Part shown: positions 5,618-58,472 of the stretch, piece after piece
Position numbering within the stretch: position 1 is the first letter of the stretch
How the letters are laid out: every line of letters begins with the position of its first letter
Source: an uncultured Gammaproteobacteria bacterium
GTDB lineage: Bacteria; Patescibacteriota; Microgenomatia; UBA10105; UBA927
DNA length: 64,000 bases
Assembly: GCA_964573695.1 (NCBI GenBank)
Contig: CAZNKB010000006.1
Coordinates: forward strand, 8,879-72,878
Direction of reading: 5' to 3'
The notes under the pieces: model-generated
Seen by the model: the letters and a program-made list of their open reading frames with translations, nothing else
Told to the model about the DNA's origin: nothing
Databases searched by the model: none
Program-made: the position numbers and the translations under genes

Positions 5618-5866
5618 ATGACAACCCAAGAAACAGGCCAGTTCGCCGCCGCACAACCAGAGCCCCTTCAGGATCCGAAGGAAACCCCTCCTGAAGCTCA
5701 CGAAGGACAAATGACCACAGATCAGGTCGGTCCCAAAGAAACGAAAATTGTCATGGAGGTTGTGGACATGCGGATTGAATTCATCCAAAAACGCAAGCAC
5801 GAACGCACTATGGAACGCACGTTACGCTGGCCTATCCATAGCAACACCCCGAGAATTACTTTTTAG
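5618..5866 (+). CDS. small acidic hypothetical protein
   Basis: 82 aa, Pro/Glu-rich. Ends in PIHSNTPRITF, matching the tail of 4348-5535. 11 nt convergent overlap with 5856-8756. Confidence 0.4.
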   Translation: MTTQETGQFAAAQPEPLQDPKETPPEAHEGQMTTDQVGPKETKIVMEVVDMRIEFIQKRKHERTMERTLRWPIHSNTPRITF

Positions 5867-13121: not shown

Positions 13122-13356
13122 GGCTAAGTTTTCTCCTTTTAGCCTCCGAGTAGTTATTAGCTCTCGGACAAGTTGAGATTGGATATCACAGAAAGCGAAA
13201 AGGTTTTTGAGTCCCTAATTACCTCCTGAGTGAATTTTTCCGAGTACCCGAAAGTACTCGAAGAAAAAATATGAACCGGCTACCGCCATAAAAGCAATGA
13301 CAAGCAGTAACCAGATGGTTCCGAGCGTTTTGCGCAACCTCTTCATACCTTACTCG

Positions 13357-14271
13357 CTATTCCCGGCACGTGGTCGTGATGAGATCCAGATAGACGTTGG
13401 TGCCGTTGACGATGACTTCGAAGTGACCGCCAGTGACGTCCATCTCCACCAGTTGGAGCGAGGTTCCTGCTGGAACCGTTCCCAGCTGGGTGTTGGTCGC
13501 ATCAAAGTACGGGACATCTGCGTCGCCATCGTGCATAACGAACCAGGTGTACCAGTTGCCGTCGCGTGTATAGCCCTCTGAGCATTGCCCATGGCTGTAG
13601 TCGTTGAGCGCGATGTAGACTCTGGCCGTGCTGGTGACGTAGGTCACGCCGTCGTAAGTGACATGACTCTGATCAACGTAGGTTACGTCAGTGCCGTTTT
13701 CGACCCACATGACAGGTTGATAGGTCTCCGTCAGAAGCAGTGTCCCCATGCCATTAGCATTGACCAACTTGTAGTCTTTGCCGGCTTTGGGAGCCAGTGC
13801 CGCTGTGTGGGTTTTGTTCCAGACGCCGATTTCCAGCCGCGGGTCATAGTCGCCAATCAACTGATCGCAGGCAACTTTCACGCCGCCGATGTACATGGAT
13901 TCGGGGCGATAGCCGACAACGAGTGACTGGCACAGGTCGTGGGCTTTCAACTCCGCCATGATTACGGCGTTAGGAATCATGCGCACGTCGCCAAGGGACA
14001 AATTCGGCGGGTCGCAGGTTATTGAGTCCGCGTTGCTTGACGCCGACGCCACGGTGATTTCGTACTTGCCGAAGTCCGGGGCATCCGTCGATTCGCCGTA
14101 GTCGCAGACGATTTGCTGGGTCGTCTTGGTCGGTTCAGGCGTGGCAGTCTGGGTCGGTGCTTCGGTTGCCATCGTTTCCACGGGTTGCGCAGGCGCAATC
14201 GGTGTAACGTTTCGGCACGCGAGCAAGAGCGCAATCGCAAGCATCAGGCCTGCAAATTTGTTCTGCTTCAT
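13357..14271 (-). CDS. putative lipoprotein with a Thr/Pro-rich linker
   Basis: 304 aa. Signal MKQNKFAGLMLAIALLLAC (lipobox-like LLAC), then PAQPVETMATEAPTQTATPEPTKTTQQ. Confidence 0.55.
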   Translation of the reverse strand: MKQNKFAGLMLAIALLLACRNVTPIAPAQPVETMATEAPTQTATPEPTKTTQQIVCDYGESTDAPDFGKYEITVASASSNADSITCDPPNLSLGDVRMIPNAVIMAELKAHDLCQSLVVGYRPESMYIGGVKVACDQLIGDYDPRLEIGVWNKTHTAALAPKAGKDYKLVNANGMGTLLLTETYQPVMWVENGTDVTYVDQSHVTYDGVTYVTSTARVYIALNDYSHGQCSEGYTRDGNWYTWFVMHDGDADVPYFDATNTQLGTVPAGTSLQLVEMDVTGGHFEVIVNGTNVYLDLITTTCRE

Positions 14272-15623: not shown

Positions 15624-16182
15624 TCACTCTTTTTCGTTCACTCGTTTTTCTAGTCGGAGAATCGCAACATCAGTGTTGTTGTCCGCTTTATTTCCGCTAT
15701 ATATTAAAAAAGAAATAATCATACATCTTTATCGTTTCACTCGATATAGCTTTACACCTCCGAGGTGGAGGAAGAAACTACAGCGAGTGGTAAAAAAGAG
15801 ATGATTTCTACCTCCGCCGATGAGGCAGAAGTAGTTTCCCTGTATGCCTTGTTAAAGTGCGTTTGCACCGTAATCCGCCGATGAGGCAGGTTAAAGTGCT
15901 ATGCTTCATCTTTACTCCAGACACACGCAATTGTGTGTCCTTTGTAAGGACTACGCATATTTCTGAGGTGTTATCCCCAGAAAAGAATCCCGCCCGCCTT
16001 CCTGCCGTAAGGCAAGACGGGACTCATTTCCGAGGGTAAGATTCCATATTTAATTGTTAAGATTTGTTTTCCTCAATGCACAACATACGGTTCTGCATTC
16101 AGGAAAAGGCACGAGTAAATGGTCCCGGTAAAGGGTATTTGGCTACGTGCCATGGTGAGAGAGTTGATTGCAGCGTGAGCTG

Positions 16183-16217
16183 CGAGAGAAAAGGGAGGCT
16201 GACAACTGGTGTCAGCC
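16183..16217 (-). terminator. Intrinsic terminator of the 16228-16704 gene
   Basis: Perfect 8 bp stem GGCTGACA/TGTCAGCC at 16197-16217, followed on the minus strand by UCCCUUUUCUCU, 10 nt after the stop. Confidence 0.5.
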
Positions 16218-16227
16218 TCACTATTGG

Positions 16228-16704
16228 TTACAGGTTGTTGCCTGGCGCTGGAGTAATCAGAAGACCATTCATGATGATCAGATTCCCATTACCTTTGCAG
16301 ATAACGCCAACCGTTTCAGGTTGTCCTTTTACGGCTTCCGTACCGGACACGGTGATAGCGCCAGCACTATTCCAATCGCCAAGGCATTCATAGCCTTGAG
16401 GAGCGGACCAGCTGACGAATGCGCCGTCGTATTCGATAAAGAACGAGGCGGACGATCCGTCGTAAAAGGTGGCGGTTGCTTCCTGCAGGTCGCTTGTGTT
16501 GCAAGTGAAACTCGTCACTTCTCGCTCTTCGCTCATGACCTGGTATTCGCTTGCCTGCGATTGGGAAATCGGGCAGTACCAGTCCACAGCATAGACATGC
16601 GCGAAAGTTATCGAGCCATTGGTGAGTGGACACAGCATCACGCAAATAAGGCAAAATAGCAGGACGCCGCCAAGTACGATCCAAAGCTTTTTGTTTCGTT
16701 TCAT
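16228..16704 (-). CDS. small secreted hypothetical protein
   Basis: 158 aa. Signal MKRNKKLWIVLGGVLLFCLICVMLC. Confidence 0.5.
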   Translation of the reverse strand: MKRNKKLWIVLGGVLLFCLICVMLCPLTNGSITFAHVYAVDWYCPISQSQASEYQVMSEEREVTSFTCNTSDLQEATATFYDGSSASFFIEYDGAFVSWSAPQGYECLGDWNSAGAITVSGTEAVKGQPETVGVICKGNGNLIIMNGLLITPAPGNNL

Positions 16705-16770
16705 CAGATGTTCTCCTCAAAATATGATCTGAGACCGGTACGATGTAGCTGCATCGGTCCCAGTTGATGT

Positions 16771-17883
16771 TTACGTCCCCGGCGTTAGTGACGCTGACGG
16801 CGTATTCGACGGGGTAAGCGTCGGACGCGGAGTCTTGGTAGACGTAGGTAGTGCCGTCGGCGTTTGGGTCGGCGCGATTTTGTGGGTCGCGTCAAATGAA
16901 TCAAACGGCAACGCGTCGCCCAAGATGTCATCCCCGAACCAGTAGTACTCCACGCTAAGCCAGCCTCCCGAAAATTCGTCCATGCGGCTAAGCATGTATT
17001 TGAGTAGCCGGGCGTTTTCCTTGTTCGTGCCTTCGCGCGGCTTGCCGTCTTGGATGAAATAAACATTCTGCATTTCTGCATCTACTTCATCGCACGTCGC
17101 GGTGTATTCTTTCCACAGAACGACGACGGTTTTGACCACATCGCCCTCGCAAGTAAACGAACGGATTGCACCGCCGTCAAACGTGATCTTCTCGCCGGTT
17201 TTTAACTCTTCGAAGGAGCGTGCGGGAAAATGGATGCCTGCAGGAACTTCGACGTTGTGGTCATGGTCAATGGTCACCTCAATGACTTCGCTTGCCGCAG
17301 TCCCTTCGCCTCCGAATCCCTGTCGGCTGAAGATTATCGTATAACCGTTGGGCATGATGCTCTTAAGTTCGTCCTCGTTGGTATCGAGAACATACATGAG
17401 CTCATGCACAGAATCCGAGATGTTCACGTCAACCGTGCTGTTGTAGGTGTAGGCAATGTATGTGCAACCTGGCGCCAGCGTGTAAGACAAGTATGTCTCG
17501 CCGAACCAGAACGTAAATTTCCCGTTGCACTTTGCAATCAGGAACACGTTGTAGCCCTCGGTGAACTTGGTCGTATTCTTCGCGTCATGGTCGTTTTCAT
17601 CGAACCAGCGTCCGAGAAACTCTACCGGTCCGCCGTCAAATATTTCCGCGTTAATCGTGCGAAGCATCAACAAACCCGGATCGGGAATGGGGCTCGCAGT
17701 GACGGTTATAGTGGCGGTGGGCGGTTCGGTTGCTGTATTTGTGGCGCTGGGTTCCGATGTGTTCGTACCGGTTGGAAATGCGGTCGCAGTTGCGGTCGGC
17801 GCATTTGTCAGCGTTTGGCATGCAAGCATTGTAATGAGCAATGCCGCAATGAATGCCGGAAAGCGATAGGCCTTCGTTTTCAT
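16771..17883 (-). CDS. putative lipoprotein with Thr/Pro-rich N- and C-terminal linkers
   Basis: 370 aa. Signal ...ALLITMLAC. N-terminal TNAPTATATAFPTGTNTSEPSATNTATEPPTATITVTASPIPDP. C-terminal APTQTPTALPTSTKTPRPTLTPSNTPSASLTPGT. Confidence 0.55.
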   Translation of the reverse strand: MKTKAYRFPAFIAALLITMLACQTLTNAPTATATAFPTGTNTSEPSATNTATEPPTATITVTASPIPDPGLLMLRTINAEIFDGGPVEFLGRWFDENDHDAKNTTKFTEGYNVFLIAKCNGKFTFWFGETYLSYTLAPGCTYIAYTYNSTVDVNISDSVHELMYVLDTNEDELKSIMPNGYTIIFSRQGFGGEGTAASEVIEVTIDHDHNVEVPAGIHFPARSFEELKTGEKITFDGGAIRSFTCEGDVVKTVVVLWKEYTATCDEVDAEMQNVYFIQDGKPREGTNKENARLLKYMLSRMDEFSGGWLSVEYYWFGDDILGDALPFDSFDATHKIAPTQTPTALPTSTKTPRPTLTPSNTPSASLTPGT

Positions 17884-18575
17884 GGTTTATCTCCCGTGTT
17901 GCATCGAGTAAACGTGCAACAGTAAAAAATGGTCTGATAGACTTCCTCATTATCCCGAGAGGGAAATGAGCTTGATAGTCGCCCGCAAAGCGAACGCTTC
18001 GTGGGTCGTTATCGGCCAAGTTGATTGATTGTAGATATTTGTTCTGTTTTCTCCTGTATGTGTGGAAAAAGGTCGGATAAATCATCCCCTGTAGTGTTTT
18101 GTATACCCCCGGTTCCGCGCAGAATAGCATTCTGCAGAGAACGGGGGATACACGCGCCTCAAGGGACACCTACAATCATGGGAGTAACCATAAACCGTAA
18201 CGGCTTATTACTTATATGTACTCAGCCCCGATCAAATCGGGGTCAACTCTCTCTGTTAATGTGCCCTTTGGTACCGCAGGTTTCATCGCGATGATGAGCT
18301 GCAGAGGCCAAAAGAACCACGAGCGCTCAACTTTTGAGCACGCGTGTTCCTGGTTCATCACCAGAAACGAGGCGGAATAAAGATCCCGTCTCGTTTCCGG
18401 AGACGATGCGTTATCAGTCGTATGTCAAAAGTGCTAATGATATTGTTTCTCCTTGTTTGCACGCCTTAAGTATCAGTTCCTTACCGTCCAACATGGTTTC
18501 GTTATTTGCCAAGCGCTTCGCGCGAACCCATTTTGTTTTGTAACCTCGCGGATCAGAATCCGCTCGTTAACAAAC

Positions 18576-18678: not shown

Positions 18679-19347
18679 TTAGGGTTTAATTGCTCCTTTC
18701 GCGAGAATCCCAAACCCAATGACAGCCAAAGCTAAAAATGGAAGCATATATGCGTAATCTTCGAATCCCGCAACAGGAAGGGTGGTTACACCCATAACTT
18801 TTGTCTGCACGCACATGCTGGCCGTATCCTGGTCGGATTGCCCGCCAGGGCCGGTGGCAGTTACCGTGTTGACGATGTCGCATGTGAGATCATTTTTGAA
18901 TGCAGAGGCGTCTTTGATTTTGACTAATACCCGATTATGGACGGTCGCTCCGGCTTTAAGATCCGAGATTTCGTACGTCAGTTTGTTTGCGTCAGCTTCG
19001 TATCTGCCAGGACCTGAGACAAACGTCACATACTCCGGAAACACATCGATTACCGTAACCGTGGCAAAGTTCACGTTGCTCGTGTTGGTCACCGCTATGT
19101 CGTATTCGACCTCGCTATTCACGGAATACGCGGCATCTGAACTCGTGATGTTTTCAACGAACGTATATGCGTTTTGGGCTTGTCTCACTTTTTTGTTGAC
19201 GACAATTCTGTTTGGGGGACACTCTACGGTATTGCCGTATTGGTTTGTACACGTCGGTGTTTCGTTGTAGTCGGCAAGTACGGTTGGTGTAACCGCAAAC
19301 AATGCGGTTGCCGTTAAGAACAAAGAAATAGCTTTGATTGATTTCAT
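18679..19347 (-). CDS. Cell-surface protein with a DUF11-like repeat domain and a C-terminal sortase sorting signal (LPVAG + TM + basic tail)
   Basis: 222 aa. N-terminal signal MKSIKAISLFLTATALFAV. C-terminal ...TLPVAGFEDYAYMLPFLALAVIGFGILAKGAIKP. Confidence 0.65.
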   Translation of the reverse strand: MKSIKAISLFLTATALFAVTPTVLADYNETPTCTNQYGNTVECPPNRIVVNKKVRQAQNAYTFVENITSSDAAYSVNSEVEYDIAVTNTSNVNFATVTVIDVFPEYVTFVSGPGRYEADANKLTYEISDLKAGATVHNRVLVKIKDASAFKNDLTCDIVNTVTATGPGGQSDQDTASMCVQTKVMGVTTLPVAGFEDYAYMLPFLALAVIGFGILAKGAIKP

Positions 19348-19426: not shown

Positions 19427-20305
19427 TTAAATTTTTTGATCCTGGCTTTCTATGAGATCTGCGAATATAAGCAAACGCTGTGTCGTGCTTCCGGGAGGCC
19501 AGCAGGTTTGTAAAATGAGCCTACGAGCACCCCCTTGGGGCGCCAGGTAGGCGACAGCCGTGGGGTCGACGATCTGCTTACCGGTTATTTTGTAGGTGTA
19601 GCTCGCTCCCTTGTAAAACAAAACAACCATGTCGTTCTCTTCCAGATTTTTGAGGAGGTAAAATACGGCATTTAGATCACCCACGAACCAATCGTAATTG
19701 GTGGAGTGGGAAAAGAGGAATACGGTGCCGTCCTCGTTTGGGAAGTAGGAGAGCGAAGAGTGAGCTATACCCTTTTGGAGCGCTGCCAAGTACTCTCCCG
19801 GTTTGGTCGGATTGACAGCCGGAATTACCGCTGCATTGACCCCGATTTTCGGGATAACGAGCGAAAACTCTTTGTTTACCGGATCAATTGAGGCTCCGTC
19901 GGGGGTTTTAAGCGGGTCAAAAACCGCTGGAACTGCCTGTTGAGATGAGGCGACATCTGAAGCATGTTGAGCCTGTTTTGTGCCTGTCAGTCGGGATAGC
20001 TGTGTATTAGCCTCTGCAATGCCAGCTATAACATCGGCTTTGAATCCCGGCCAGGCGTGCTGAGCCTGAATAAGGGCATATTTCGTTTCGAGTCGTATGC
20101 GGGGTGTCAGAGGCCCTGTGAGTCCTCCAAGTGCCAGTGCTATAAGTCCCAATCCCACCAAATGTAGCCCCGATGATTTGTTGCGGTTATGTGAGATTGT
20201 AGATTGGTGTTTTCGTTCGCGTAGGACCGTAAGCGACGAAAGATCGCCGAGAGCGATTTGAGGCTGACTTTGGGTCCATTCAAAGATAATTCCGGTGGGT
20301 TTCAT
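19427..20305 (-). CDS. sortase (transpeptidase) family protein
   Basis: 292 aa. N-terminal TM anchor. Motifs: His in LFSHSTNYDW, catalytic Cys in RLILQTCWPPGS (TLxTC-like), downstream Arg in QRLLIFA. Immediately upstream of the LPVAG substrate gene. Confidence 0.7.
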   Translation of the reverse strand: MKPTGIIFEWTQSQPQIALGDLSSLTVLRERKHQSTISHNRNKSSGLHLVGLGLIALALGGLTGPLTPRIRLETKYALIQAQHAWPGFKADVIAGIAEANTQLSRLTGTKQAQHASDVASSQQAVPAVFDPLKTPDGASIDPVNKEFSLVIPKIGVNAAVIPAVNPTKPGEYLAALQKGIAHSSLSYFPNEDGTVFLFSHSTNYDWFVGDLNAVFYLLKNLEENDMVVLFYKGASYTYKITGKQIVDPTAVAYLAPQGGARRLILQTCWPPGSTTQRLLIFADLIESQDQKI

Positions 20306-20396: not shown

Positions 20397-20792
20397 CTAT
20401 ATTTCTATGGGAGCGACGTATTTACCCGCGCGGTAATATCGTCCGTCAGGGCCCTGGGAGTATATACGTCGGTTGCGCGCGATAACTCTAAGTTCCAAAA
20501 TATCGGTGCGCTTCGAAGGAGATCCAAATACTGCAGTCTTGATTCTCCGTTGTCTGCCTGATAATTCCACGACAGTACGCCAGGTGTATGTGCCATGTTG
20601 TTTGGCATCTCTGGCTCCTCTCATACCGTCCCGTAGGCAGGTAAATGACCGGCAATGCCACGCTTTCTCGTCTTCGTATGGTGACACAGGAAGAAGACGA
20701 AGTCCGTCGTCAGTGAGTATTTGGGGAACTAATTCCGTGTGGCACTCGAGTCGTATCGGGCAGCCCTGGCATATGGCGTACTCTTGTTTCAT
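20397..20792 (-). CDS. small Cys-rich hypothetical protein (CxxC-x5-C ... C-x5-C)
   Basis: 131 aa. AICQGCPIRLECH...WHCRSFTCLRDG. Possible metal-binding protein. Overlaps the GNAT gene by 4 nt. Confidence 0.4.
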   Translation of the reverse strand: MKQEYAICQGCPIRLECHTELVPQILTDDGLRLLPVSPYEDEKAWHCRSFTCLRDGMRGARDAKQHGTYTWRTVVELSGRQRRIKTAVFGSPSKRTDILELRVIARNRRIYSQGPDGRYYRAGKYVAPIEI

Positions 20793-21674: not shown

Positions 21675-24600
21675 TTACACGGCTTTCTTTTTGGCAAACG
21701 ACACTTGAAGTTTGTCCCCCGCAACGTCAATGCGATTTGCTTTCCACGATGGGTTGATCTTGCCGTTTAAGTGCGTGAGTACCAGATCATTGAAATGATC
21801 GAGGCTTTCATGAATTGATTTTTGCCATGGTCTGGCAAGGAGCGGCAAATGGAGGCTCAATGTGTCTTTCTTAACTATGAGGCCATGTGTGGGGTCGGTA
21901 ATGAGTGTCCCCGCAAACTGCGCTTCGCCGACGATTGTTTTGGCCTTCATGTCGGTAAGTTTTACCGTGTTGCCTTCGATTGTAATTTTTCCTCCGGTGA
22001 TCCGGGCCCCCGGTAGTTCGACCGAGGATCGGACGTAATCCATAAGTTCACCGGTGGTAAGTTGTACTGCTGCTTGGGTTTCGCGTGCCTTGTTCAATAC
22101 GTATGTAATACGATCTTCGACTCCTTCAGGGAGGCGCTCGGGAGCGCGAGGTGTCTCCGTTTGTATCGCGGGTGGTTCTGTCGGCTGTGCGTTTGTTACG
22201 TCGGGAGATGCGATGCTTGAGGCGACAGTTTCTGTCGGTGTTTCCGCTTCAGTTGGTTTTTCCGGTTGGTCGCCTGCTAATGTTTCGAGATGTTCGCGGG
22301 GCGATTCGGGTGCGTTCGGGACTGCGGCAACTACCTCTTGCGCTGCGGTTTTTGCAAAGCTCTCAATGTCCGGTGTGGCTGCCATATTGGCGCTGAGGTT
22401 GGTCATATCCGTTATGGTAATCGCACCGTCTTTGAGTTCGTAGGTGAGTCCGAGCGTATCCATGGTGCGTCCAAAATACGCATCAAATCGTGCGGGGTTG
22501 GAAGATTTGAGCGTCGGGTACATGTTGGCATACATATTGTTGATATGGGCCTCCATAGTTTCTTTGGTGAATTGTTCGTTGGCTTTTTTGGCCATGTCTT
22601 CCCAATGCATGTCTTTGTATACTTCGTTGTTTGCAAGCGGCACCGAGGGCTCTGCAAGTCCGAGTTGTTGGAGTTGCATATAAACGGTTTCCTTTGGATC
22701 CATGGTTGCCGCTAACGAAGGGAGAGAAACCGCGACATCCGGAGTTTTTCTGGCGTCCGTTAACATCCAGGCGACCTCCCGTTCTTCCATGAGTGGGGAA
22801 TTGGGGTTATATCCGCCGATAGCAGCTAAAGAACCAGACCGTACAGCAGTGTTTCCCTGAAATGCAGCGGGTACGCTTTGCGTTTCTCCGTGACGGACGA
22901 GGGCATCAAAGATTTCAAACGCACGGTGATGTGCGAATAACATCGGGTAGTTGGCATACGCGTCTTTCGGAAGTTGATATATGCCGCTGACGATATCAAG
23001 AGAAGGATTGGCATCAAATGTATCGATGATGCTGGATAGATACGTGGCTTCGACCGGGTTTCCTGTGCTGTTTTCGGCAATAAGCGAAACTTCCGGCGCG
23101 TCCGGAGGGCGACTTGCGACCAGTGACAATGCGTAGTTACTCAGGTCCCGTTTTATGCGTCCGGAGGTCGGAGGTTCTGCATAGGTATTGGTGATAAATT
23201 GCACCTGCATATCCGGATGATCCGCACGGAAGCGGTCAATTTCTGCTTTGGTGTCTCCTGGTAGTGTGGAGGTGACTGATTCTGCCGGCGGGGTCACGTT
23301 GGCTTCGTAGACGACAAATGCCACGCGCTTCGGATCAAGCGCGGATCCGTCGGCATTTGTTTGTTGCGCGTATGTACTGAGCCGCTGATATATCGTATTG
23401 CCGTTTTGTACCAGGGGAATCGAAACGATTGCTCGTGTGTCAGGCGAGAGGACCGGATTATCTTGAGCTTTGAGCGCTTCAAGTGTTTGTTGTTCTTCCG
23501 GTGTGAGGAGCGAAAGGTACCAATCAATTTCTTCCCGTTCATTGAGTTTTGCTTGCGGATTTTCGGTGAGCCTTGGTGACATACGGTTTGCCCGTGCTTC
23601 ACGGTTTAAGAATGTTTCTTCATAGCCAAACGGACTGATCATGGTTTCACCCGGGATCATCTGACCCATGAGCCCCTCTATGGGAGCGGCTTCGAGGACC
23701 TCTCTATACGGCAAGAAAATCGGTATCCATGGAAGTTCTCGCGCCGCTGCTCCCGGAGTGACAACCGTTTCTACATGGTACGGAATTTCCAGAGGGGCGG
23801 ATGCGAAAATTTTACCCGGCTCATCACTCTTGAATACCTCCGTAAGGGTAAACTGATGTATGGCATCGGTTTTTACCTCAGTTATGGGTGTGGGCACTAT
23901 CGGAGTCCCGACAAATGGCGACTCAGGGCTTTCGGGTAATCCAAGTTTTTCCATGAGAGGAGCTAATTCTGCCTGACTGGGTAAATCGGCATCCCGTCCG
24001 AAATAGCTCATCCGAAGGAGAAGGGCGTCGATTTTGTCCTGATCGGAGCCTTTTTCCAGGAGGTGTAACGCGTCCATAGGACTCTGGCCCGAAGCGACGA
24101 TGTCTTGATAATGTTTGATCGCCAGATCATTCATTTCTGAAAAGCGATGTACGGCTTCCGGACTAAACAGCTCCTTCGGCACATTGATATGCGCATCATT
24201 AGCGATATGGGCGATATCAAATTCTTTGACCGGCGTATCCCCGAATGTGGCATCGCGGAGGCGGGCAACGTGGTCATAGGGGTTGCTTCCGTTATCGCCG
24301 AAACTTACGTTCTGCGGGATTCCGTCGGCCGTATGCGGTACGTAATGCTGTTCATACAGACGGAAAAGATTCTTGATACCATTGGCACTCGCTACCCGAT
24401 GTTCACCACTGGATTTGTCGAGGAAATAATCCCAAAGTCCACCTTCCTGCAGATCACTACCTTTGATGTCGATCATGTCACCTGCATTAGCACTTTCCGG
24501 TGTGCCGGAAACAAATACACTTGTTGCAGGGAACGATTCGATCTTTGCAGGAATGATTTCCTGAGATTTCCACTCAAATCCATTGGCTTTTAGATCTGCC

Positions 24601-27600
24601 GTCAGCTTCGCAAGCTCGGCCGGTGTGCCTTGTAGTTCTCCTGTTTGGGTAAAATCAACGGTACTTACGATTTGCTTATCTGCGTTGAGTATTTGCCAGT
24701 GATGACTACTGTCAAGATATTTGAGTGTATAATCTTCCGGCAATTTCGCGGTAAGTGGCTCTCCGCCTGGTGTTGTCAGGTGGGGAATGGTGACAACGTC
24801 ATGTATGCTGGAGACTGCCTCTCCGGCTTTGTGGGGTTCAGTTATCGATAATCCGGCTTTTACCAGCGCATCTTTGAATTGCTGTTCGGATAAATGCGTT
24901 CCGAGTACCACGTCTTCCTGTCCTTTAAGATTCTCGATAAGGCTGATATCCAATTTTGCGTCATAGAAAACTTTGCCGTTTTCGGTATATGGATTGACAA
25001 TCATTTCTTTGGGTAATTGATATACGTTATGCCCAATGGAAATGATGTGTTCGCCGGTCGGAGGAGATAGTTCGACATGCGACGAACCTGTAGCGTTTGC
25101 TGCGTCAGAAAGTTCGGCTGCCCCCCGGGTAACCGTATCGCTCGTCCCTATATGTGCAAGTCCCTGGAATGCGGCTCCTACCGCGGCTCCGACGACTCCT
25201 GCTTTGACGCCGTATTTGACGGCTTCGATCTTCGCTTCGGATTTGAATTCTTCGAGTATGGCGTCGAGTCCGAGCGCCTTCTCGTCGCCGCTTAGGTTTT
25301 TGGAAGCGAATGGCCACCGGCGCCTCATGATTTCTGCTTCCGGTGCATACGAAGAAACGAGGTTGAGCGTCAATTTCAGCGGATCGTCGAGGGCGTCAAG
25401 CGATTGGGCTCCTTGCCGTAGTACCTGCGTTTGGGTGACCGTTAGTTTTTCCATGAATTCCGCAAATGTATTGCCGCCAAGCACAAGGTCGGCCTGTTCG
25501 GTATGTCCGGCCAGATATGATTCGATATCAGCAAGTGCTTTGTTGGCGGTAAGATCGAGCGCGCTTCGCTCGCTTTCAATGGATTCGCGGTTTGTGTACT
25601 GTATCAAACCGATTCTTTTGGGTCCTGTTTCGCTGACTGCCTTGCGTGCGTGAAGATCGGCAATGGTAGCAAATGACGCCCGTAGTTCATCGTCGGACAG
25701 GTTTGCTTTGAGAGTATCGCCTTCGTAAAGGGAAGATTGCAGTGTCGCGATCATTTCGTCTGCCCTGCGTTGCTTGACTGCAAATTTTTCAAACCAGTTC
25801 CTGCGTTTCTGGGTTTCGGTAAACTGAGCGCCGCTTTCGCGTTCCCGTAGGTGTGTCATGTAATCTTTCTGCAATTGTCCGTATTCACGCCAGCCGGCGA
25901 ACAATCCTCCTGCAAGCGCTCCTCCCGTGAGACTTCCCAGCGGCCCTGTGATAGAGGCGACTGCTTTAAATGGCGCGGTCTTGAGGAAGTTGACTGCCGA
26001 GAGCGCGATTGCAACTCCCGAGCCGATTGTCGCTTCGTTAAAGACCATAGGAACTAAGACATGCTGCTTATTGAGCCAGTCGGCGATTTCCCGGATCTGT
26101 CCGACGCCTTTTTCCACCGCAGTCGGCTCCAAGCTGGTAACTTCTCCCATGGCGCCCAGTCCTAGTCGTATTTGCATGGAGTTTATCGCTTCATCGATAT
26201 TTGCGAGTCCTCCCTCATGGCTCATTTTGGTGCGTAGCGTTTCTGCTACCTCATACAGACTCGAACTATATAATTCTGCCTCAGCAAAAATATCCGGGCG
26301 TGTATTGTTTAGCGTCGCTTTGAAGAATTCTTTTGTTCGGGCATCAAATTCTGCTTTGTCCGCTATTTCGCCACTGGCGTATTGTTTGAGTAAGCTTTGT
26401 ATCCCTTCTACCAACGGTTTGTGTTCTTCGCGTGCAGGGTCGAGAATCTCGAGTTTTTCTCCCAGTTGCTTACGGACGAACTGATCCGCCTGGTCAAAAT
26501 CTCCTCCGAAGCGTGCGCGAACCGCTTTGGCTTCGCGCTCAAATGTCTCGAGACCTTTGATTTCTCCCGTAAGTCTCATGGTTCCGATTTCTTCCAGAGC
26601 GATATTTTGGATTGTGGTGCGCATGCCAACCTTATCTTTGAACCAGTCAACTGCCTTGGTCCCTATTCGGAGTATGAAATTGGAATCTGCCAATTTCGCA
26701 TTGTATTTGTCCGTGGCTCTTCGTTCGGCTAATCTGATCGCGTCTTCCGCAAAGGGTGTTTCTGCTGCCTTGAGCATGTCGATGTAGTATTGGCGGGCTT
26801 TTTCATGGAAATAAATGCCGCCGATGCTTTGCTTCCATGTAGTGACCGCGAAATTTTCTATGTTCGCTACCGCGTCTTTGGTTTTTTCCCAGAGATTGCG
26901 TGTCGCCTGGGTCCGCTCCGCGGATTGCGGATGCGTAAGCTTCTGCATACTACGGTCGGCCAAATCCAGCGCCCGGGTTTCATAGGCTTTGAGCCCCACA
27001 ATGGTAATGACATTGGGGTCTTCGGTCAGGGTTTCCAATATCTCGCGGGCGCCTTTGGCGGGAGTGGGTTCCTGCTGCACTGCCTCCGGCGTTGGAGCCT
27101 CCGGAGCATGTTGCTCTGGAGTCGCGGGAGCGGGAGTTTCGGGAGACAGGGCGGGTGATTCTGTCGGTTTGTCTTGACTTGTCGGGGTTTCCCCAGAGGC
27201 TGCCGGTTCCTGTGGTATTTGAGCCGGTGTTTCCTGTTTGATAGCCGGTGCGGCGGGAGCTTGCGGCTCCAGCGTGAGCATATCTTTCGTGATCATGTGA
27301 GTGGCGTTTTGTTCGTCTGACCATTGCAATCCCGAAATTTTATCCCAGGGTACTTCATCAAAGGCATTGAGATTTGTGAGCGGTTTATCGACGAGCTTGC
27401 CTTCCTCTCCTTTTTTGCGGCTGAGTTCTTTGACGAGAGGAACGATGCTTCCCACTCCGTCGTTGGAGCGTTTCTCTGCCGGTAATATGGTGATATAGGA
27501 AATATCCTTGCCTCCGATAAGCTGCGGCTGTGAAAGATAGATCGGCGTTTCTCCTACGATAATCGATTGCTGTTTGCCGATTTCAGGATTGTTTTGTGGT

Positions 27601-27617
27601 GGGATTGGTTCTGTCAT
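21675..27617 (-). CDS. giant hypothetical protein (1980 aa) with a low-complexity Pro/Glu/Ala/Thr segment and internal glycine-zipper hydrophobic helices
   Basis: Single uninterrupted ORF. Residues ~100-190 are PAAPAIKQETPAQIPQEPAASGETPTSQDKPTESPALSPETPAPATPEQHAPEAPTPEAV. Mid-protein hydrophobic segments VAIALSAVNFLKTAPFKAVASITGPLGSLTGGALAGGLFAGW and VKYGVKAGVVGAAVGAAFQGLAHIG. No enzymatic motif recognised. Confidence 0.6.
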   Translation of the reverse strand: MTEPIPPQNNPEIGKQQSIIVGETPIYLSQPQLIGGKDISYITILPAEKRSNDGVGSIVPLVKELSRKKGEEGKLVDKPLTNLNAFDEVPWDKISGLQWSDEQNATHMITKDMLTLEPQAPAAPAIKQETPAQIPQEPAASGETPTSQDKPTESPALSPETPAPATPEQHAPEAPTPEAVQQEPTPAKGAREILETLTEDPNVITIVGLKAYETRALDLADRSMQKLTHPQSAERTQATRNLWEKTKDAVANIENFAVTTWKQSIGGIYFHEKARQYYIDMLKAAETPFAEDAIRLAERRATDKYNAKLADSNFILRIGTKAVDWFKDKVGMRTTIQNIALEEIGTMRLTGEIKGLETFEREAKAVRARFGGDFDQADQFVRKQLGEKLEILDPAREEHKPLVEGIQSLLKQYASGEIADKAEFDARTKEFFKATLNNTRPDIFAEAELYSSSLYEVAETLRTKMSHEGGLANIDEAINSMQIRLGLGAMGEVTSLEPTAVEKGVGQIREIADWLNKQHVLVPMVFNEATIGSGVAIALSAVNFLKTAPFKAVASITGPLGSLTGGALAGGLFAGWREYGQLQKDYMTHLRERESGAQFTETQKRRNWFEKFAVKQRRADEMIATLQSSLYEGDTLKANLSDDELRASFATIADLHARKAVSETGPKRIGLIQYTNRESIESERSALDLTANKALADIESYLAGHTEQADLVLGGNTFAEFMEKLTVTQTQVLRQGAQSLDALDDPLKLTLNLVSSYAPEAEIMRRRWPFASKNLSGDEKALGLDAILEEFKSEAKIEAVKYGVKAGVVGAAVGAAFQGLAHIGTSDTVTRGAAELSDAANATGSSHVELSPPTGEHIISIGHNVYQLPKEMIVNPYTENGKVFYDAKLDISLIENLKGQEDVVLGTHLSEQQFKDALVKAGLSITEPHKAGEAVSSIHDVVTIPHLTTPGGEPLTAKLPEDYTLKYLDSSHHWQILNADKQIVSTVDFTQTGELQGTPAELAKLTADLKANGFEWKSQEIIPAKIESFPATSVFVSGTPESANAGDMIDIKGSDLQEGGLWDYFLDKSSGEHRVASANGIKNLFRLYEQHYVPHTADGIPQNVSFGDNGSNPYDHVARLRDATFGDTPVKEFDIAHIANDAHINVPKELFSPEAVHRFSEMNDLAIKHYQDIVASGQSPMDALHLLEKGSDQDKIDALLLRMSYFGRDADLPSQAELAPLMEKLGLPESPESPFVGTPIVPTPITEVKTDAIHQFTLTEVFKSDEPGKIFASAPLEIPYHVETVVTPGAAARELPWIPIFLPYREVLEAAPIEGLMGQMIPGETMISPFGYEETFLNREARANRMSPRLTENPQAKLNEREEIDWYLSLLTPEEQQTLEALKAQDNPVLSPDTRAIVSIPLVQNGNTIYQRLSTYAQQTNADGSALDPKRVAFVVYEANVTPPAESVTSTLPGDTKAEIDRFRADHPDMQVQFITNTYAEPPTSGRIKRDLSNYALSLVASRPPDAPEVSLIAENSTGNPVEATYLSSIIDTFDANPSLDIVSGIYQLPKDAYANYPMLFAHHRAFEIFDALVRHGETQSVPAAFQGNTAVRSGSLAAIGGYNPNSPLMEEREVAWMLTDARKTPDVAVSLPSLAATMDPKETVYMQLQQLGLAEPSVPLANNEVYKDMHWEDMAKKANEQFTKETMEAHINNMYANMYPTLKSSNPARFDAYFGRTMDTLGLTYELKDGAITITDMTNLSANMAATPDIESFAKTAAQEVVAAVPNAPESPREHLETLAGDQPEKPTEAETPTETVASSIASPDVTNAQPTEPPAIQTETPRAPERLPEGVEDRITYVLNKARETQAAVQLTTGELMDYVRSSVELPGARITGGKITIEGNTVKLTDMKAKTIVGEAQFAGTLITDPTHGLIVKKDTLSLHLPLLARPWQKSIHESLDHFNDLVLTHLNGKINPSWKANRIDVAGDKLQVSFAKKKAV

Positions 27618-27622
27618 GGTGA

Positions 27623-27961
27623 TTAGTGTGTTTTTTGTTCGGTGACGCCGATATAGAGCCTATGGAAATCACTAAAAATCTGCGCGACCAAGATTTCCGG
27701 TTCTTTTACATAATTACTGATGAATTTTTGCACTTCCTCCGGTGCTGGATTGGTTTTTATGAGTTCGGCAAGCGCGGAGACCGCATCCGGATTGGTGGAG
27801 CTGACCATTTCTATAGTGCGGAGCGTGAGATACTGATTGAGTCTTTCGGTGAGTTCACGCTTGATGTCACTTCTGGTTGCATCGTCAAGGGGACTAGATG
27901 CAAATTTTTCGGCTATGAGCGAGTCGATAAAAGCATCGATAGCAGGAAGCGTAATGTCCAT
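27623..27961 (-). CDS. small acidic helical hypothetical protein
   Basis: 112 aa, 5 nt upstream of the giant gene. Operonic. Confidence 0.45.
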   Translation of the reverse strand: MDITLPAIDAFIDSLIAEKFASSPLDDATRSDIKRELTERLNQYLTLRTIEMVSSTNPDAVSALAELIKTNPAPEEVQKFISNYVKEPEILVAQIFSDFHRLYIGVTEQKTH

Positions 27962-28112
27962 AGATCTACATTATGGTAGTAGTGGGGGGCTGTCAAGGAC
28001 TGTACAACTATATAGAAATGATATGTTTTAAATCAAATAGACTTCATTTGGATTTCGCTTCGCAATGGGACGTGTTGCGAAGCTGATTTTTAGAGAGAAT
28101 GATATAGTTTTT

Positions 28113-28487
28113 TTACTTGGTCTTCGAGCTTCCGGTCCACACCAGTTTCACATCTTGTTTTATCACCTTGTCCGCAAGTTCCTGAGCTTCCTTGTACTGA
28201 CCTGCTTTGATAAGCTGTCGGACCGTCTCGATAGCCGGTTTGGCGACGCCGTCTTCGTAGTCCCGTAAATAAGGAACAATCACATGGGATATCTCCGAAA
28301 AGTTGTCATCTAAGTGTGGCAGTGTTTTGTATAATTCCTCGAGACTCATGCCGGGCTTGAGTCGTTCGAGAATCATCTGCGCCAATGTTTGCGCACGCTC
28401 CTCACTCATCTCCTCTGCTTCGACTTTTTGTTTGATAAGGTCGACAATATCGGCCTCTATTTGCTCTCTGATGTCATCGGGGGACAT
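28113..28487 (-). CDS. small acidic helical hypothetical protein
   Basis: 124 aa. Composition similar to 27623-27961. Same operon. Confidence 0.45.
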   Translation of the reverse strand: MSPDDIREQIEADIVDLIKQKVEAEEMSEERAQTLAQMILERLKPGMSLEELYKTLPHLDDNFSEISHVIVPYLRDYEDGVAKPAIETVRQLIKAGQYKEAQELADKVIKQDVKLVWTGSSKTK

Positions 28488-28543
28488 ATCTCTAGTATCA
28501 CGTATAAGTAGACAGGGATCAAGAGGGGAGGAGTGGGAAATGG

Positions 28544-29434
28544 TCAGGCTGCAAGGAATTTATCGTCGTTTTGGGAAGGATAAGGGAATATCATGCCTTT
28601 TGTTTTGGAAAGCGCATTGATTTGCGTGCTATTGTCTATTTGTTTTACAAGCGCCTCCAGAGCTTCGGGCACTGCTCCGTAGACAAAACGGCGTAAGGTG
28701 GTAAGGTCCAGATGATCCCAGGTGGGAATTTCAAAAAGCAGCTGCGGTTGTAAATTCGGATCTTTTTGGATATAGCATCGAAGCGGCTCCGTTTTGTCGT
28801 AGAGTTCGGTGCCTCCGTTTTGGATCGAAACTCCTCCTGCCGCCATGGTGATGTCTCGTTCTCCATGCGTTTTGATGACGTTCATGATATCCGACATGTC
28901 ATAGGGTCTCATTTTTCCCGCGACGCGCACGAGTACTGTCGCAGGGTGTGCCGACGGATCGGTAATGTCGATTCCGGTGAGAGCGGTACATATTTCAAAG
29001 TTTTTTCCTGATTGTGACAGTGCCCCATTTTCCTGATCCGAAAGCCAATGATCTAAACTAATGGGTTTTTCCAGGACTTTCGGGATATCGTCCGGGGCAT
29101 CGGCGTTATAACTTACCTGTACCGTGTCGGAATACAATCGTATGGTGCGACCTGGTCTCGTACTCACGTCTCCCAATAGACCCTCGCATGCTGTGTTGTT
29201 GACCGCTCCCTGGACAAGAAGTCCGGTTACGTCCTGCAAGGCTTTTTCCTTTGCGACTTCAAAGGGCCACTCGGACGGTGAGCTGTTGACCGGCTTGTGA
29301 ATGACAGTTTCCGTAAATCCGGGTGTCACTTGATGTACGCGATCAGGCGTGAGGAGGGATCGAAACGCCATTATGCGTTCTTTTGAAGATGTCACAACAT
29401 CAAGATAAATTGGTCGCTCGTTTTTGAGTGCCAT
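28544..29434 (-). CDS. hypothetical protein
   Basis: 296 aa. First gene of the minus-strand operon that ends with the giant protein. Confidence 0.5.
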   Translation of the reverse strand: MALKNERPIYLDVVTSSKERIMAFRSLLTPDRVHQVTPGFTETVIHKPVNSSPSEWPFEVAKEKALQDVTGLLVQGAVNNTACEGLLGDVSTRPGRTIRLYSDTVQVSYNADAPDDIPKVLEKPISLDHWLSDQENGALSQSGKNFEICTALTGIDITDPSAHPATVLVRVAGKMRPYDMSDIMNVIKTHGERDITMAAGGVSIQNGGTELYDKTEPLRCYIQKDPNLQPQLLFEIPTWDHLDLTTLRRFVYGAVPEALEALVKQIDNSTQINALSKTKGMIFPYPSQNDDKFLAA

Positions 29435-31703: not shown

Positions 31704-32333
31704 ATGCAACCTACTATAATCGGATTACTCGGTAAACCGTTGGCGGGGAAAGACACTGTTGCCCGTGCACTTGCAGACTCGCTTCCGAATCTCGCTACAA
31801 TTTCCATGGGAGAGGTAGTGCGGGAGGTGAAAGCAGTGGGACCTGCTCACCGTTTTTGGAATGAATTACATGATTCTATAGGTATAGCCGATGCTGGCGG
31901 TATCGCTCCGGACGGACCTATTTTCGAATGTCTGACCAAGCTTATCACCGAGCAGTTTGACAAGGGCGCGGAAACAGTTGTTTGGGTTGCCGGCCCGAGA
32001 AGTGAGCAGCAGCTAGACTGGTTGGATTCGTGGACAAAAGATTGCGGATATCAAGAACAATTCGTGTATATCGATGTCCCGGATGAAATGGTGTATGAGC
32101 GGGTTAGTGAGCGCGCTGCACACATGAGAGAAGATGACAAGGTGGTTCCCTATAGACTTGCCGAGTTTGAACGGATTACCAAGCCAGTTATAGATCGGCT
32201 TCGGGAGCAGGGGAGAATCCGCGAGATAAGTGGCTTGGGTGGGAGAGAAGCCGTGGGTTCGCGTGCTGTGGAGATATTTATGCCCGTACAAAAAGAACAC
32301 GAGCCTACATTACCCACGATGGCGCGACGATAA
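31704..32333 (+). CDS. adenylate kinase-like nucleoside monophosphate kinase (divergent, P-loop)
   Basis: 209 aa. Walker A GKPLAGKDT. NMP-binding-like ISMGEVVREV. Ends in LPTMARR. Paralog of 33699-34343. Confidence 0.55.
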   Translation: MQPTIIGLLGKPLAGKDTVARALADSLPNLATISMGEVVREVKAVGPAHRFWNELHDSIGIADAGGIAPDGPIFECLTKLITEQFDKGAETVVWVAGPRSEQQLDWLDSWTKDCGYQEQFVYIDVPDEMVYERVSERAAHMREDDKVVPYRLAEFERITKPVIDRLREQGRIREISGLGGREAVGSRAVEIFMPVQKEHEPTLPTMARR

Positions 32334-32349
32334 TCGGCACGTTTGTATA

Positions 32350-33174
32350 TTAGCGTGAGGAGGATTTCTGTTTGGACGCAGACCGCGCTAAGCGCTTAAG
32401 GCGAATTTTGATGTCATCGACTTCGTTAGTTATGAGTTCCAGTTCTTTGGATAGTGTTGACTTCTGTATATGCCGCGCTTCTTCCATTTCTTCACGCACT
32501 TCCTCAAAGCCACTGATGACGACCCCGATAAACAAATTTAGGATAATCATGGTTCCCACAACGATAAAACTGACGTAGTAAAGCGTCGAGATAAGTGAAT
32601 ATGACTGCAGGGAGTAGATTTCTACCCAGCCCTCTAATGTGACGATCTCAAAAAGGGTGATAAGCGAGCGCCCCAAGTCGCCGAAGTGCGCAGGATCAGA
32701 ATCACCGAATTCTACGTTTCCTATGACAGCATAGATATAGAATTGTATAAAAAGGAGAAGTCCCACATACCCGATAGACGGAATGCTTTTGATGAGTGCA
32801 CCTACGAGGAGTTGAAGGCGGGGAAGCGCGGAAAATACTCGAAAGATCCGCAATATGCGCACGAGTCGCAAGACCGAGGCGTACGCGCCTCCGAATGGCA
32901 GATAAAAAAGACTGGTGACGGCAAAGTCAAATGTATTCCATTTCGAGCGGAAAAATCTCCAGGGTTTATTGCCCAGAGCCAATATCCGCAGCGTAATTTC
33001 CACGGTGAAGATGATTTGGATGATTGTGTCCAGGGTGGCAAACAGTGGATGGAATCGATTGGAAAGATTAGGATACGTTTCTAGTCCTACAGCAAGCGAA
33101 GCGACAAGGATAACTCCCATGATGAAGGGGGCAAACAGACGATGTTGCGTGATCGTGCGTCCTATTGCATTCAT
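32350..33174 (-). CDS. Voltage-gated ion channel, single 6TM domain, NaChBac/BacNaV-like
   Basis: 274 aa. S4 helix with Arg at every third position (VLRLVRILRIFRVFSALPRL). Pore/selectivity filter FEIVTLEGWVEI (TLESW-like). C-terminal coiled-coil. TATAAT immediately before the ATG, so possibly leaderless. Confidence 0.75.
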   Translation of the reverse strand: MNAIGRTITQHRLFAPFIMGVILVASLAVGLETYPNLSNRFHPLFATLDTIIQIIFTVEITLRILALGNKPWRFFRSKWNTFDFAVTSLFYLPFGGAYASVLRLVRILRIFRVFSALPRLQLLVGALIKSIPSIGYVGLLLFIQFYIYAVIGNVEFGDSDPAHFGDLGRSLITLFEIVTLEGWVEIYSLQSYSLISTLYYVSFIVVGTMIILNLFIGVVISGFEEVREEMEEARHIQKSTLSKELELITNEVDDIKIRLKRLARSASKQKSSSR

Positions 33175-33698: not shown

Positions 33699-34343
33699 GT
33701 GAAGCCGATCCTCCTTGCAATCATAGGCAAACCCCTTGCCGGCAAAGATACCCAGGCAGATTTACTTGTCGCAGCTCACCCCGAGGCGGTCAAAATATCT
33801 ACAGGGCACATTATGCGTGCGGTGCGTGAGGAAGGCGAAACCCATAGATTTTGGCCTCTTATCGGGCCGTATATCCCCATGATGGAGCAGGGGCTTAAGC
33901 TACCGGATGAACCTACAATTGCGATGCTAGGAGAAGTGATACAAGAGCAGCTTACTGAGGGGAAGCGACTGCTGGTTGTTGCCGGTTCTCCCAGGGGTAC
34001 GGAACAGCTCGAAGGGTTTGAGCGTATCGCAAGCACAACCGGCGCCAAGCTGGTGCTCGTTCATATGGATGCGACCGATGAAGAAACCTACAAAAGAAGT
34101 GCTGCCCGCAACGAGGGAAGGGTAGACGACACACCCCAGGTTCATAAGGTACGGCTTACGGAGTACGAAGAGTATGTCGGGCCTATGGTGGATAAACTCG
34201 CCCGCGAAAACAGGCTTATTTGGGTCAACGGTATGCAGCCGGTTGAGGGGGTATTTCGGCAGTTAGAGCAACAGTTACGTCAGCACATGCTCGACCCTGA
34301 AATCGCCCCGGAAATTACCTTGCCCGCCATGGCCCGCCGTTAA
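33699..34343 (+). CDS. adenylate kinase-like nucleoside monophosphate kinase (paralog)
   Basis: 214 aa, GTG start. GKPLAGKDT. ISTGHIMRAVRE (adenylate-kinase NMP-binding motif). Ends in LPAMARR. Confidence 0.6.
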   Translation: MKPILLAIIGKPLAGKDTQADLLVAAHPEAVKISTGHIMRAVREEGETHRFWPLIGPYIPMMEQGLKLPDEPTIAMLGEVIQEQLTEGKRLLVVAGSPRGTEQLEGFERIASTTGAKLVLVHMDATDEETYKRSAARNEGRVDDTPQVHKVRLTEYEEYVGPMVDKLARENRLIWVNGMQPVEGVFRQLEQQLRQHMLDPEIAPEITLPAMARR

Positions 34344-55456: not shown

Positions 55457-55704
55457 GAGGTCTAGAAAAAATCAAAGTATATCTAAGCTTGTTAGTACGG
55501 GAAATATGCGTTTATGTGATAAGAGAACGATAAGATTATGATCTGGTTAGTCCGGTGCTTGACAAGGTGTGAAAAGCAGGCGTACAGTAGATATATAACT
55601 TACACATATTAGTAATAACTGTGAAAGTTATTGGTAAGCACTTGTAAAAACTTGGTTTAATTTCGCATTGGTACGGGCTAAAGGGTTTGGGAGCCTGCCT
55701 GGAC

Positions 55705-58403: not shown

Positions 58404-58472
58404 ACGACAGATACGCCGGGGATCGATAAACCTCTTAACTTGCCGATATTATCATCGAGCATTGGTACGAAT

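Follow-up and report, generated by a model that had tools for sequence, protein, structure and literature searches.

A giant protein with a glycosyltransferase-type fold and its DUF5663-like partner, a conserved two-gene module of Candidate Phyla Radiation bacteria

Within a 64,000-nucleotide stretch of contig CAZNKB010000006.1 (here called the window, and numbered from its first letter), four open reading frames (ORFs) follow each other on the minus strand, the last of which encodes a giant protein of 1980 amino acids (aa). An earlier note, made from the sequence alone, described them as a four-gene operon. The conserved unit of this locus is instead formed by the giant gene and the 112-aa protein gene immediately upstream of it, which together would represent a module restricted to Candidate Phyla Radiation (CPR) bacteria. 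The giant contains a conserved helical region, named here the N-module, followed by a domain with the GT-A glycosyltransferase fold, and the small protein is a divergent member of the DUF5663 family. The reading that we tentatively prefer is that of a CPR-specific membrane-associated platform for the assembly or modification of envelope glycoconjugates.

The giant gene (21675-27617, minus strand; pI 4.97, no cysteines) is real and vertically inherited, with its synteny kept in metagenome-assembled genomes (MAGs) of Gottesmanbacteria. The chance of a random ORF of 1980 codons is around 5e-42, and 68 homologues, most of them of 1,577-2,139 aa and sharing 30-93% identity, were found in NCBI, JGI, ENA and Logan assemblies, those with a name being Patescibacteria or Candidatus Gottesmanbacteria. 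As these homologues are mostly full length and come from independent assemblies, the ORF is not an assembly chimera, the outcome that would have undone the earlier description. The reading frame is unbroken in 30 independent loci, and a scan of the GTDB species genomes returned 17 loci, with the best one in a Gottesmanbacteria MAG (90% identity over the N-module). Together with a database copy of the 124-aa protein that is 100% identical and lies on a 73-kb NCBI contig, these relatives place the window in a genome of Gottesmanbacteria (Microgenomates, CPR). Several MAG records carrying this CPR-specific cluster (loci L011, L015, L018, L020, and L022-L025) are titled "uncultured Gammaproteobacteria bacterium", which almost certainly reflects a placeholder name or an error of taxonomic labelling.

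Located directly upstream, the 112-aa protein gene (27623-27961, minus) has its stop codon 5 nt before the ATG of the giant. We found 86 homologues of this protein, all from the same lineage, better conserved than the giant and many of them encoded on contigs with giant homologues. The protein gives no match to Pfam DUF5663 (PF18908) at E<=0.1, and hence none at the gathering score of the family. The connection was revealed by a distant locus from a Paceibacterota (L026), where a 102-aa Pfam DUF5663 gene (28.1 bits, against a cut-off of 23.7) lies 5 nt before a gene for a 1164-aa N-module protein; aligned with this DUF5663 protein, the 112-aa family shows clear profile homology (hhalign 97.9%, E 4.5e-13, 97 columns). 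A hidden Markov model (HMM) of the 112-aa family detects, immediately before the giant gene and on its strand, an ORF of 101-160 aa (size taken from the first start codon in frame) in all 29 loci searched, including the four distant loci L026-L029, where the matches range from 5e-15 to 3e-20. In a thirtieth locus, a DUF5663 gene is found 12 nt upstream of the giant gene, so that the pairing extends to 30 out of 30 loci, other CPR lineages included, with a gap of 2-12 nt between both genes in many of them. This constant position, together with the profile alignment, identifies the 112-aa protein as a divergent member of DUF5663, tied to the N-module as its obligate genomic partner. Fusions of both proteins, of the Rosetta-stone type, were absent from the 141 superfamily representatives and the 68 giant homologues. 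DUF5663 itself is not mentioned in the searchable literature, where neither a function nor a partner has been described for it.

The two remaining genes of the minus-strand series are less constant companions. The four ORFs, encoding proteins of 296, 124, 112 and 1980 aa in the order of transcription, are co-directional, exactly as the ORF listing of the earlier note had it, and are separated by 56, 151 and 5 nt. The single operon, by contrast, holds only in part, with signs of a break between the 124-aa and the 112-aa genes. Directly after the 124-aa gene there is a hairpin with an 11-bp perfect stem (GCTTCGCAATG..., 28057-28083), whose T-run lies on the plus strand, where no gene ends. A 224-aa gene on the opposite strand occupies this same intergenic position in the relative L001, and the hairpin may thus be a relic or a bidirectional terminator. 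A promoter-like element, TTGACA-15 nt-CATAAT (27970-27996, minus), can also be read 8 nt ahead of the start codon (ATG) of the 112-aa gene; it is only putative, and its 15-nt spacer explains its absence from the list produced by our consensus promoter scan. Finally, in some relatives, unrelated genes are inserted at this point, a number of them on the opposite strand. Insertions, hairpin and promoter-like element together leave the 112-aa gene plus the giant gene as the robust unit.

The 124-aa protein gene (28113-28487, minus) would be a third partner at the level of the lineage. Its product has 106 homologues with 52-100% identity, all of them unannotated, and the gene is found upstream of the pair and on the same strand in 23 of the 25 Gottesmanbacteria-level loci and in L029. 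Thus, the co-occurrence of small acidic genes and giant genes, which the original description suggested checking, is complete for the 112-aa gene but partial for the 124-aa one, which is missing from L026-L028. The two small proteins are indeed acidic (pI 4.81 and 4.70), and no paralogy was found between them. The 296-aa protein gene (28544-29434, minus) was detected in four of the eight loci searched (L001/L002, L003 and L005), all of them closer relatives and the first two near-identical to each other; the protein has no family match in Pfam, NCBIfam or PHROGs, and its gene is probably outside the core module.

The acidic proteins had been compared to secretion chaperones, an idea that rests on their size and charge and that finds no homology support, the 112-aa protein being assigned to DUF5663 instead. 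Searches for WXG100 proteins or secretion chaperones gave no match above threshold in Pfam or NCBIfam. The 112-aa protein lacks tryptophan and therefore a WXG motif, and the 124-aa protein has only a WTG, placed five residues from its C-terminus. Likewise, no secretion ATPase or apparatus component is encoded among the 38 window ORFs scanned, a set that leaves out 3756-4307 and 16168-18169. Against Pfam, NCBIfam, PHROGs and PADLOC, the small proteins gave only sub-threshold chance matches and the giant gave none.

To describe the anatomy of the giant, we combined the conservation across the family with AlphaFold2 models built with the family as the multiple sequence alignment, whose mean confidence (pLDDT) is 83.4 for aa 831-1980 and 67.1 for aa 1-830. 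The protein starts with a beta-rich domain (aa 18-110; 27288-27566, minus; pLDDT 80-90), which is conserved in the close family and present in only 13 of 141 superfamily representatives. No hydrophobic segment precedes it, in agreement with the earlier statement that the giant lacks a signal peptide; N-terminal hydrophobic segments, signals or anchors are equally absent from the 70 superfamily representatives examined. The low-complexity N-terminal stalk that had been noticed corresponds to a P/A/E/T/Q-rich linker (aa 117-190; 27048-27269, minus) modelled as disordered (pLDDT <40) and poorly conserved (alignment occupancy 0.33). Then comes the N-module, the signature of the superfamily (aa 190-825; 25143-27050, minus), which coincides with the peak of conservation of the protein (aa ~190-825, with 0.56-0.78 per 40-residue block) and is modelled as all-helical (aa 188-825), with the confidence minimum at a hydrophobic hairpin (aa 519-561). 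The lowest conservation is found in aa 830-1290, a region that holds the middle beta and alpha/beta domains (aa 845-1279; 23781-25085, minus); these are modelled with high confidence, are the most variable in sequence, and have parts in common with 31-45 of 141 superfamily representatives. They are followed by the GT-A domain with a helical extension (aa 1330-1780, core 1390-1660; 22278-23630, minus), a second disordered linker, rich in P/T/E (aa ~1784-1826; 22140-22268, minus; pLDDT <50), and a C-terminal alpha+beta domain (aa 1830-1976; 21690-22130, minus; pLDDT >90) that basal family members lack and that appears in one of 141 superfamily representatives.

An exhaustive HMM search with the profile of aa 186-830 against 1.84 billion cluster representatives showed that the N-module defines a superfamily of at least 593 clusters, all recovered at E<=1e-3; of these, 392 remain at E<=1e-10 and 64 at E<=1e-30. 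Full-length members have mostly 1,000-3,100 aa. The core common to the distant ones spans profile positions ~170-560, equivalent to aa ~355-745 of the giant, the stretch through which the window protein, a founding member, matches the profile; its retained consensus includes a NEAT...GGxxAGGxFAG hairpin and, after it, a REY..L..EY.TH.RE.E.G motif. Since one of the distant members is annotated as Candidatus Paceibacterota, at least two CPR lineages are represented in the superfamily. The N-module has no match in Pfam, PDB or fold entries, and PDB sequence searches returned only chance-level hits (E >= 0.4), whether the query was the single protein or a profile (whole protein, N-module or glycosyltransferase region). 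The domains found C-terminal to the N-module in distant members are diverse: out of 27 scanned, four carry a GT2 and four a GT9 domain, and others carry an FkbM methyltransferase, FHA plus PP2C, or a protein kinase. Two proteins illustrate the variation in architecture: P0062 (L006, 8001-13862) has an extra FkbM methyltransferase domain (PF05050, 1.5e-13), and P0185 (L028, 6001-15399), a protein of 3132 aa, has GT9, FHA and PP2C domains behind its N-module. GT9, FkbM methyltransferase, and FHA plus PP2C are all cytoplasm-type domains.

Contrary to the earlier impression that no enzymatic motif was recognisable, residues ~1330-1780 of the giant form a single Rossmann-like alpha/beta/alpha domain with a GT2-like GT-A fold. 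The fold search on the multidomain model was filled with GT-A matches, among them chitin synthase, WrtF, BcsA, RmlT, TarP, DPMS, ArnC and GtrB, and the domain is a divergent member of this known fold. At the sequence level, the giant gives no match to Pfam GT2 (PF00535/PF13632), even at E 0.1; a few relatives match GT2-clan Pfam families weakly, and one distant relative, P0156, exceeds the PF00535 threshold (39.4 bits, against a cut-off of 23.3).

The state of the catalytic motifs differs between branches of the family. Where the DxD motif is expected, the window protein has a strand-4 loop reading SLIAENSTG (23061-23087, minus; SLIA-ENST at aa 1511-1518, with E1515-N-S-T), and therefore no DxD. 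Its subclade shows ENST, DNGT, DAGT, DPG, DRGQ, AFVE and others at this site, whereas basal family members (P0050-P0068) keep [N/G/M]DAD. The motif of the catalytic-base type, "ED", is better preserved: of the 51 family sequences, 43 have E1611 and 48 keep E1614, while position 1612 is occupied by D in 43 of them and by E in 8, the window protein having EERE (LMEEREVA, 22770-22793, minus). The acidic residue after strand 2, associated with base binding, is E1438 in the window protein, and D (23), N (9) or E (8) across the family. Judging from the alignment, both E1438 and E1611-E1612 look like conservative substitutions. No QxxRW processivity motif follows the ED motif, where only a Gln is conserved. 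In the wider superfamily, the family HMM detects the GT-A domain in 69 of 141 representatives, and 61 of these 69 have a D-x-D (nearly always NDAD or EDAD) and 51 an ED-like motif, from which it follows that the ancestral domain was a canonical metal-dependent GT2-like enzyme. As far as the sequences tell, the GT-A domain is ancestral to the superfamily. In the window subclade, the DxD is lost and its site looks unconstrained while the remainder of the domain is conserved, which makes the catalytic competence of the window protein doubtful; its GT-A domain may be catalytically altered, or may serve only for sugar or nucleotide binding or for scaffolding.

The helices that had drawn attention in the middle of the protein belong to the N-module. 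They are Gly/Ala-rich and hydrophobic, as noticed, but there are three of them rather than two (aa 526-547, 556-576 and 803-822). The first two make up a hairpin (aa 526-576, FNEATIGSGVAIALS...GGALAGGLFAGW; 25890-26042, minus) included in the core shared even by the most distant relatives, with N527, E528, G566 and G575 invariant. In the third helix (GVKAGVVGAAVGAAFQGLAH; 25152-25211, minus), the invariant residues are G803, G807 and G814. The spacing of G566/G570/G575 and of G803/G807/A811/G814 is glycine-zipper-like. Together with the small partner genes, these findings sustain the general picture of a lineage-specific giant with membrane-active-looking helices and dedicated small partners. 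Measured against the canonical transmembrane criterion (hydrophobic segments of at least ~19 residues with a hydropathy value, KD19, above 1.6), the helices of the window protein reach maxima of 1.52, 1.14 and 1.36, and their uncharged runs are 17, 25 and 21 residues long. The medians of the close family are similar (1.55, 1.19 and 1.34; runs of 17, 18 and 15 residues), and crude sums on the Hessa scale amount to +5 to +7 kcal/mol for the three segments. In distant members, the equivalent segments are clearly hydrophobic (KD19 1.7-2.07). The net charge is -3 in the stretch after helix 3 and 0 in the Arg/Lys-rich stretch after helix 2. A topology of the Wzz/PCP type, with an outside helical loop between two transmembrane segments, was considered and set aside in view of this Arg/Lys-rich stretch and the short helices.

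The surroundings of the module complete the evidence. Downstream of the giant, Pfam identifies a sortase gene (19427-20305, minus) and a gene for a DUF11/CLIPPER surface protein (18679-19347, minus), which has a signal peptide and, at its C-terminus, an LPVAG-type sorting signal ahead of a transmembrane segment and a basic tail. This pair occupies the same place in L029 and in L001-L008, of which L006-L008 come from groundwater of the Hainich wells. A GNAT gene is also found in four of the eight loci L001-L008; in the window, its stop codon is overlapped by 4 nt by the gene of a 131-aa basic protein with five cysteines (20397-20792), which has no family match and is shared with the closest relative (L001/L002) alone. 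Farther away lie a gene for a 966-aa GT-C-like protein with a weak AftD match (5856-8756), a GT4 gene (10190-11545), PEGA, MreB and WecG/TagA genes (42.3-45.9 kb, from 42306 onward), and four consecutive GT4 genes with a GT5 gene of the starch-synthase type (47.7-54.3 kb, to 54338). With its GT-C-like gene, five GT4, GT5, WecG/TagA, MreB, PEGA and sortase/DUF11 genes, the window is an envelope-glycan island. Distant loci offer comparable neighbourhoods: L027 has two GT4, WecG, MreB, PEGA and Maf genes, and in L026 (2366-14838) the DUF5663-giant pair stands beside genes for BacA (undecaprenyl-diphosphatase), two DedA/VTT proteins, GT2-GtrA and DUF5666; the next gene after the pair encodes a protein of 1085 aa that contains beta-propeller, FN3-like and peptidoglycan-binding domains.

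According to our preferred reading, a membrane-associated platform for envelope glycoconjugates, the N-module would act as anchor and scaffold, its short glycine-zipper helices most likely attaching the protein to the cytoplasmic membrane or embedding it there. The DUF5663 protein, probably translationally coupled to the giant, would most likely be a stoichiometric subunit or the holder of the N-module, with the 124-aa protein as a third bound partner in the window lineage. The GT2-like domain would serve the platform as its working part or as the part that binds the substrate. Candidate targets would include a glycan, either linked to a lipid or belonging to the wall, and the sortase-dependent surface protein with DUF11 whose gene lies just downstream.

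Several points weigh against this proposal. The acceptor, the donor and the interaction between the partners are things that we infer, and, since the N-module has no recognised fold, the role of platform is itself an inference. The variable DxD site of the window subclade suggests relaxed or changed catalysis. The synteny with the sortase and DUF11 genes could reflect shared ancestry in one lineage, as the pair is absent from L026-L028. The helices are short and marginally hydrophobic, so that their insertion into the membrane is putative. Moreover, if all three of them spanned the membrane, the flank charges would place the C-terminal half of the giant, GT-A domain included, outside the cell, where there are no nucleotide-sugar donors. 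This N-in/C-out arrangement is disfavoured because it clashes with the nucleotide-sugar motifs of the family and with the FHA, PP2C and GT9 domains of the relatives. The topology that we would favour is a hairpin or a monotopic anchor that keeps both flanks in the cytoplasm.

The same arrangement is the starting point of the strongest competing explanation, which we nevertheless consider unlikely: a surface-exposed structural protein or adhesin, whose three helices span the membrane and whose C-terminal 1150 residues remain outside, with the GT-A domain as a pseudoenzyme that binds host or wall glycans. The flank charges, with -3 after helix 3, fit such an N-in/C-out orientation, and the beta-rich domains and Pro/Thr-rich linkers are typical of surface proteins. 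The loss of the DxD in the window subclade and the sortase and surface protein as neighbours would also agree with it, and CPR giant proteins have generally been proposed to be surface or attachment factors (PMC8080830). However, the DAD and ED motifs kept in basal members and in most of the superfamily imply nucleotide-sugar chemistry, and hence the cytoplasm, as do the FHA, PP2C and GT9 domains behind the N-module in relatives. In addition, helix 3 has only ~15 uncharged residues in most members, and the giant lacks a signal peptide and an LPXTG sorting signal, with none of its domains recognised as an adhesin. The notion of a toxin or attachment factor, with which the locus was first described, finds no homology support, and the vertical, single-copy and syntenic inheritance of the gene, together with the cytoplasm-type enzyme domains of the relatives, disfavours adhesin and toxin alike.

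A more daring view, rather improbable in our estimation, takes the DUF5663 protein and the N-module as an undescribed CPR-wide machine, in which the hairpin would insert into the own or the host membrane to position or deliver interchangeable payloads. In its host-directed form, which we regard as more doubtful still, the giant would be an effector or toxin, with the N-module as a self-inserting translocation or pore module through which the host cell would receive the variable enzymes of the C-terminal part (GT-A, GT9, methyltransferase, FHA/PP2C), and with the DUF5663 protein as chaperone or immunity factor. Pore-forming toxins, such as colicins, the T domain of diphtheria toxin and TcdB, have similar buried Gly/Ala hydrophobic hairpins. 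Consistent with an effector are the marginal A/G-rich hydrophobic hairpin, the constant N-terminal module followed by differing C-terminal enzymes across lineages, the tight coupling of a small acidic partner gene, and the episymbiotic life of CPR bacteria; the inheritance pattern and relatives' domains that count against a toxin are those given above.

A slim chance is left for a soluble cytoplasmic scaffold or regulator, with the Gly/Ala helices buried in a helical bundle, that organises cell-shape or wall-synthesis enzymes with no sugar transfer by the giant itself. The three helices fall under the usual transmembrane thresholds, AlphaFold2 models the region as helical, the DxD is lost in the window clade, and the wider neighbourhood repeatedly contains MreB and PEGA genes, all of which such a protein would accommodate. 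Nonetheless, the equivalent segments of distant members reach KD19 values of up to 2.07, the confidence of the model is lowest exactly at the hairpin, and the invariant glycine-zipper spacing is typical of membrane helix packing. As for a mobile-element protein (the tape measure of a phage, a toxin of the Rhs/polymorphic type, or a type IV or type VII secretion substrate with its chaperones), only the size, the small acidic neighbours and the low-complexity linkers speak for it, and it is largely refuted by the absence of any match of the giant in PHROGs, Pfam (RHS/YD included), NCBIfam or PADLOC, of any PDB match above chance level and of any relative in IMG/VR contigs or GenBank phages, the tryptophan-free 112-aa protein, the lack of a secretion ATPase among the window ORFs scanned, and the stable chromosomal synteny.

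Some other features of the window deserve a brief description. Two adenylate-kinase-like P-loop paralogues (31704-32333 and 33699-34343) flank an Ion_trans channel gene of the voltage-gated type (32350-33174, E 2.5e-49), and this duplicated pair is also found in L001 and L005. In a 649-aa protein (55687-57636), an N-terminal domain for DNA binding (HTH_17) is joined to a dCache sensor, an unusual one-component architecture. The G+C content rises to 0.55-0.59 at 12001-14000 and 58001-64000, compared to ~0.48 elsewhere, and the ORFs in these segments (11913-13121, 58628-59437, 59560-60423 and 61960-63138) have no Pfam matches; they could represent foreign or otherwise unusual DNA.

CPR bacteria, or Patescibacteria, account for a large share of bacterial diversity, and their cell-surface biology is almost entirely unknown. 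In this context, the module provides DUF5663 with a first partner in the genome and suggests envelope glycan assembly as the setting of its function, and the DAD-bearing and DxD-less subclades provide a natural contrast for the study of pseudoenzyme evolution. Should the N-module prove to be a device for membrane insertion or delivery, this would bear on how episymbiotic CPR cells build and use their surface, and, inserted into the own or the host membrane, it would count as a platform or translocator of a new class, with a central place at that surface. For the N-module there is neither a family or fold entry nor a record in the literature, our search of the literature on DUF5663 and CPR giant glycosyltransferases yielded no description of the giant family, and the pairing of DUF5663 and N-module across CPR appears to be undescribed.

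Among known systems, the large glycosylating toxins TcdA and TcdB and the pore-forming hairpins resemble the giant in being multidomain, in joining a GT-A domain to Gly/Ala helices, and in lacking a signal peptide. However, the domain order of the giant is reversed, its domain is GT2-like and not GT44, and it has neither an autoprotease nor CROP; it thus departs from the large clostridial type, defined by an N-terminal GT44 glycosyltransferase, a cysteine protease and a delivery domain. Furthermore, it is a vertically inherited core gene with no structural match to any toxin. Closer in fold are the membrane-associated inverting GT2 enzymes, such as PcManGT (6yv7), GlfT2, DPMS/GtrB/ArnC, TarP, and the hyaluronan, cellulose and chitin synthases, none of which matches the giant at the sequence level. 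Contrary to them, its domain is embedded in 1980 aa behind an N-module of 640 aa, lacks the QxxRW motif and the multi-helix channel, and has its DxD replaced by ENST in the subclade. The staphylococcal SdgA and SdgB, which glycosylate sortase-anchored surface proteins in the cytoplasm (PMC3794999), offer an analogy of context, a glycosyltransferase-type gene near a sortase and a sortase-substrate surface protein; there is no homology and no SD-repeat substrate, and a glycosylation of the DUF11 protein would be purely conjectural. On the side of the small partner, a known relative is found in the small CPR family DUF5663, whose Pfam-positive member in L026, like the 112-aa protein, occupies the position immediately upstream of an N-module giant, even though the 112-aa protein itself stays below the Pfam threshold.

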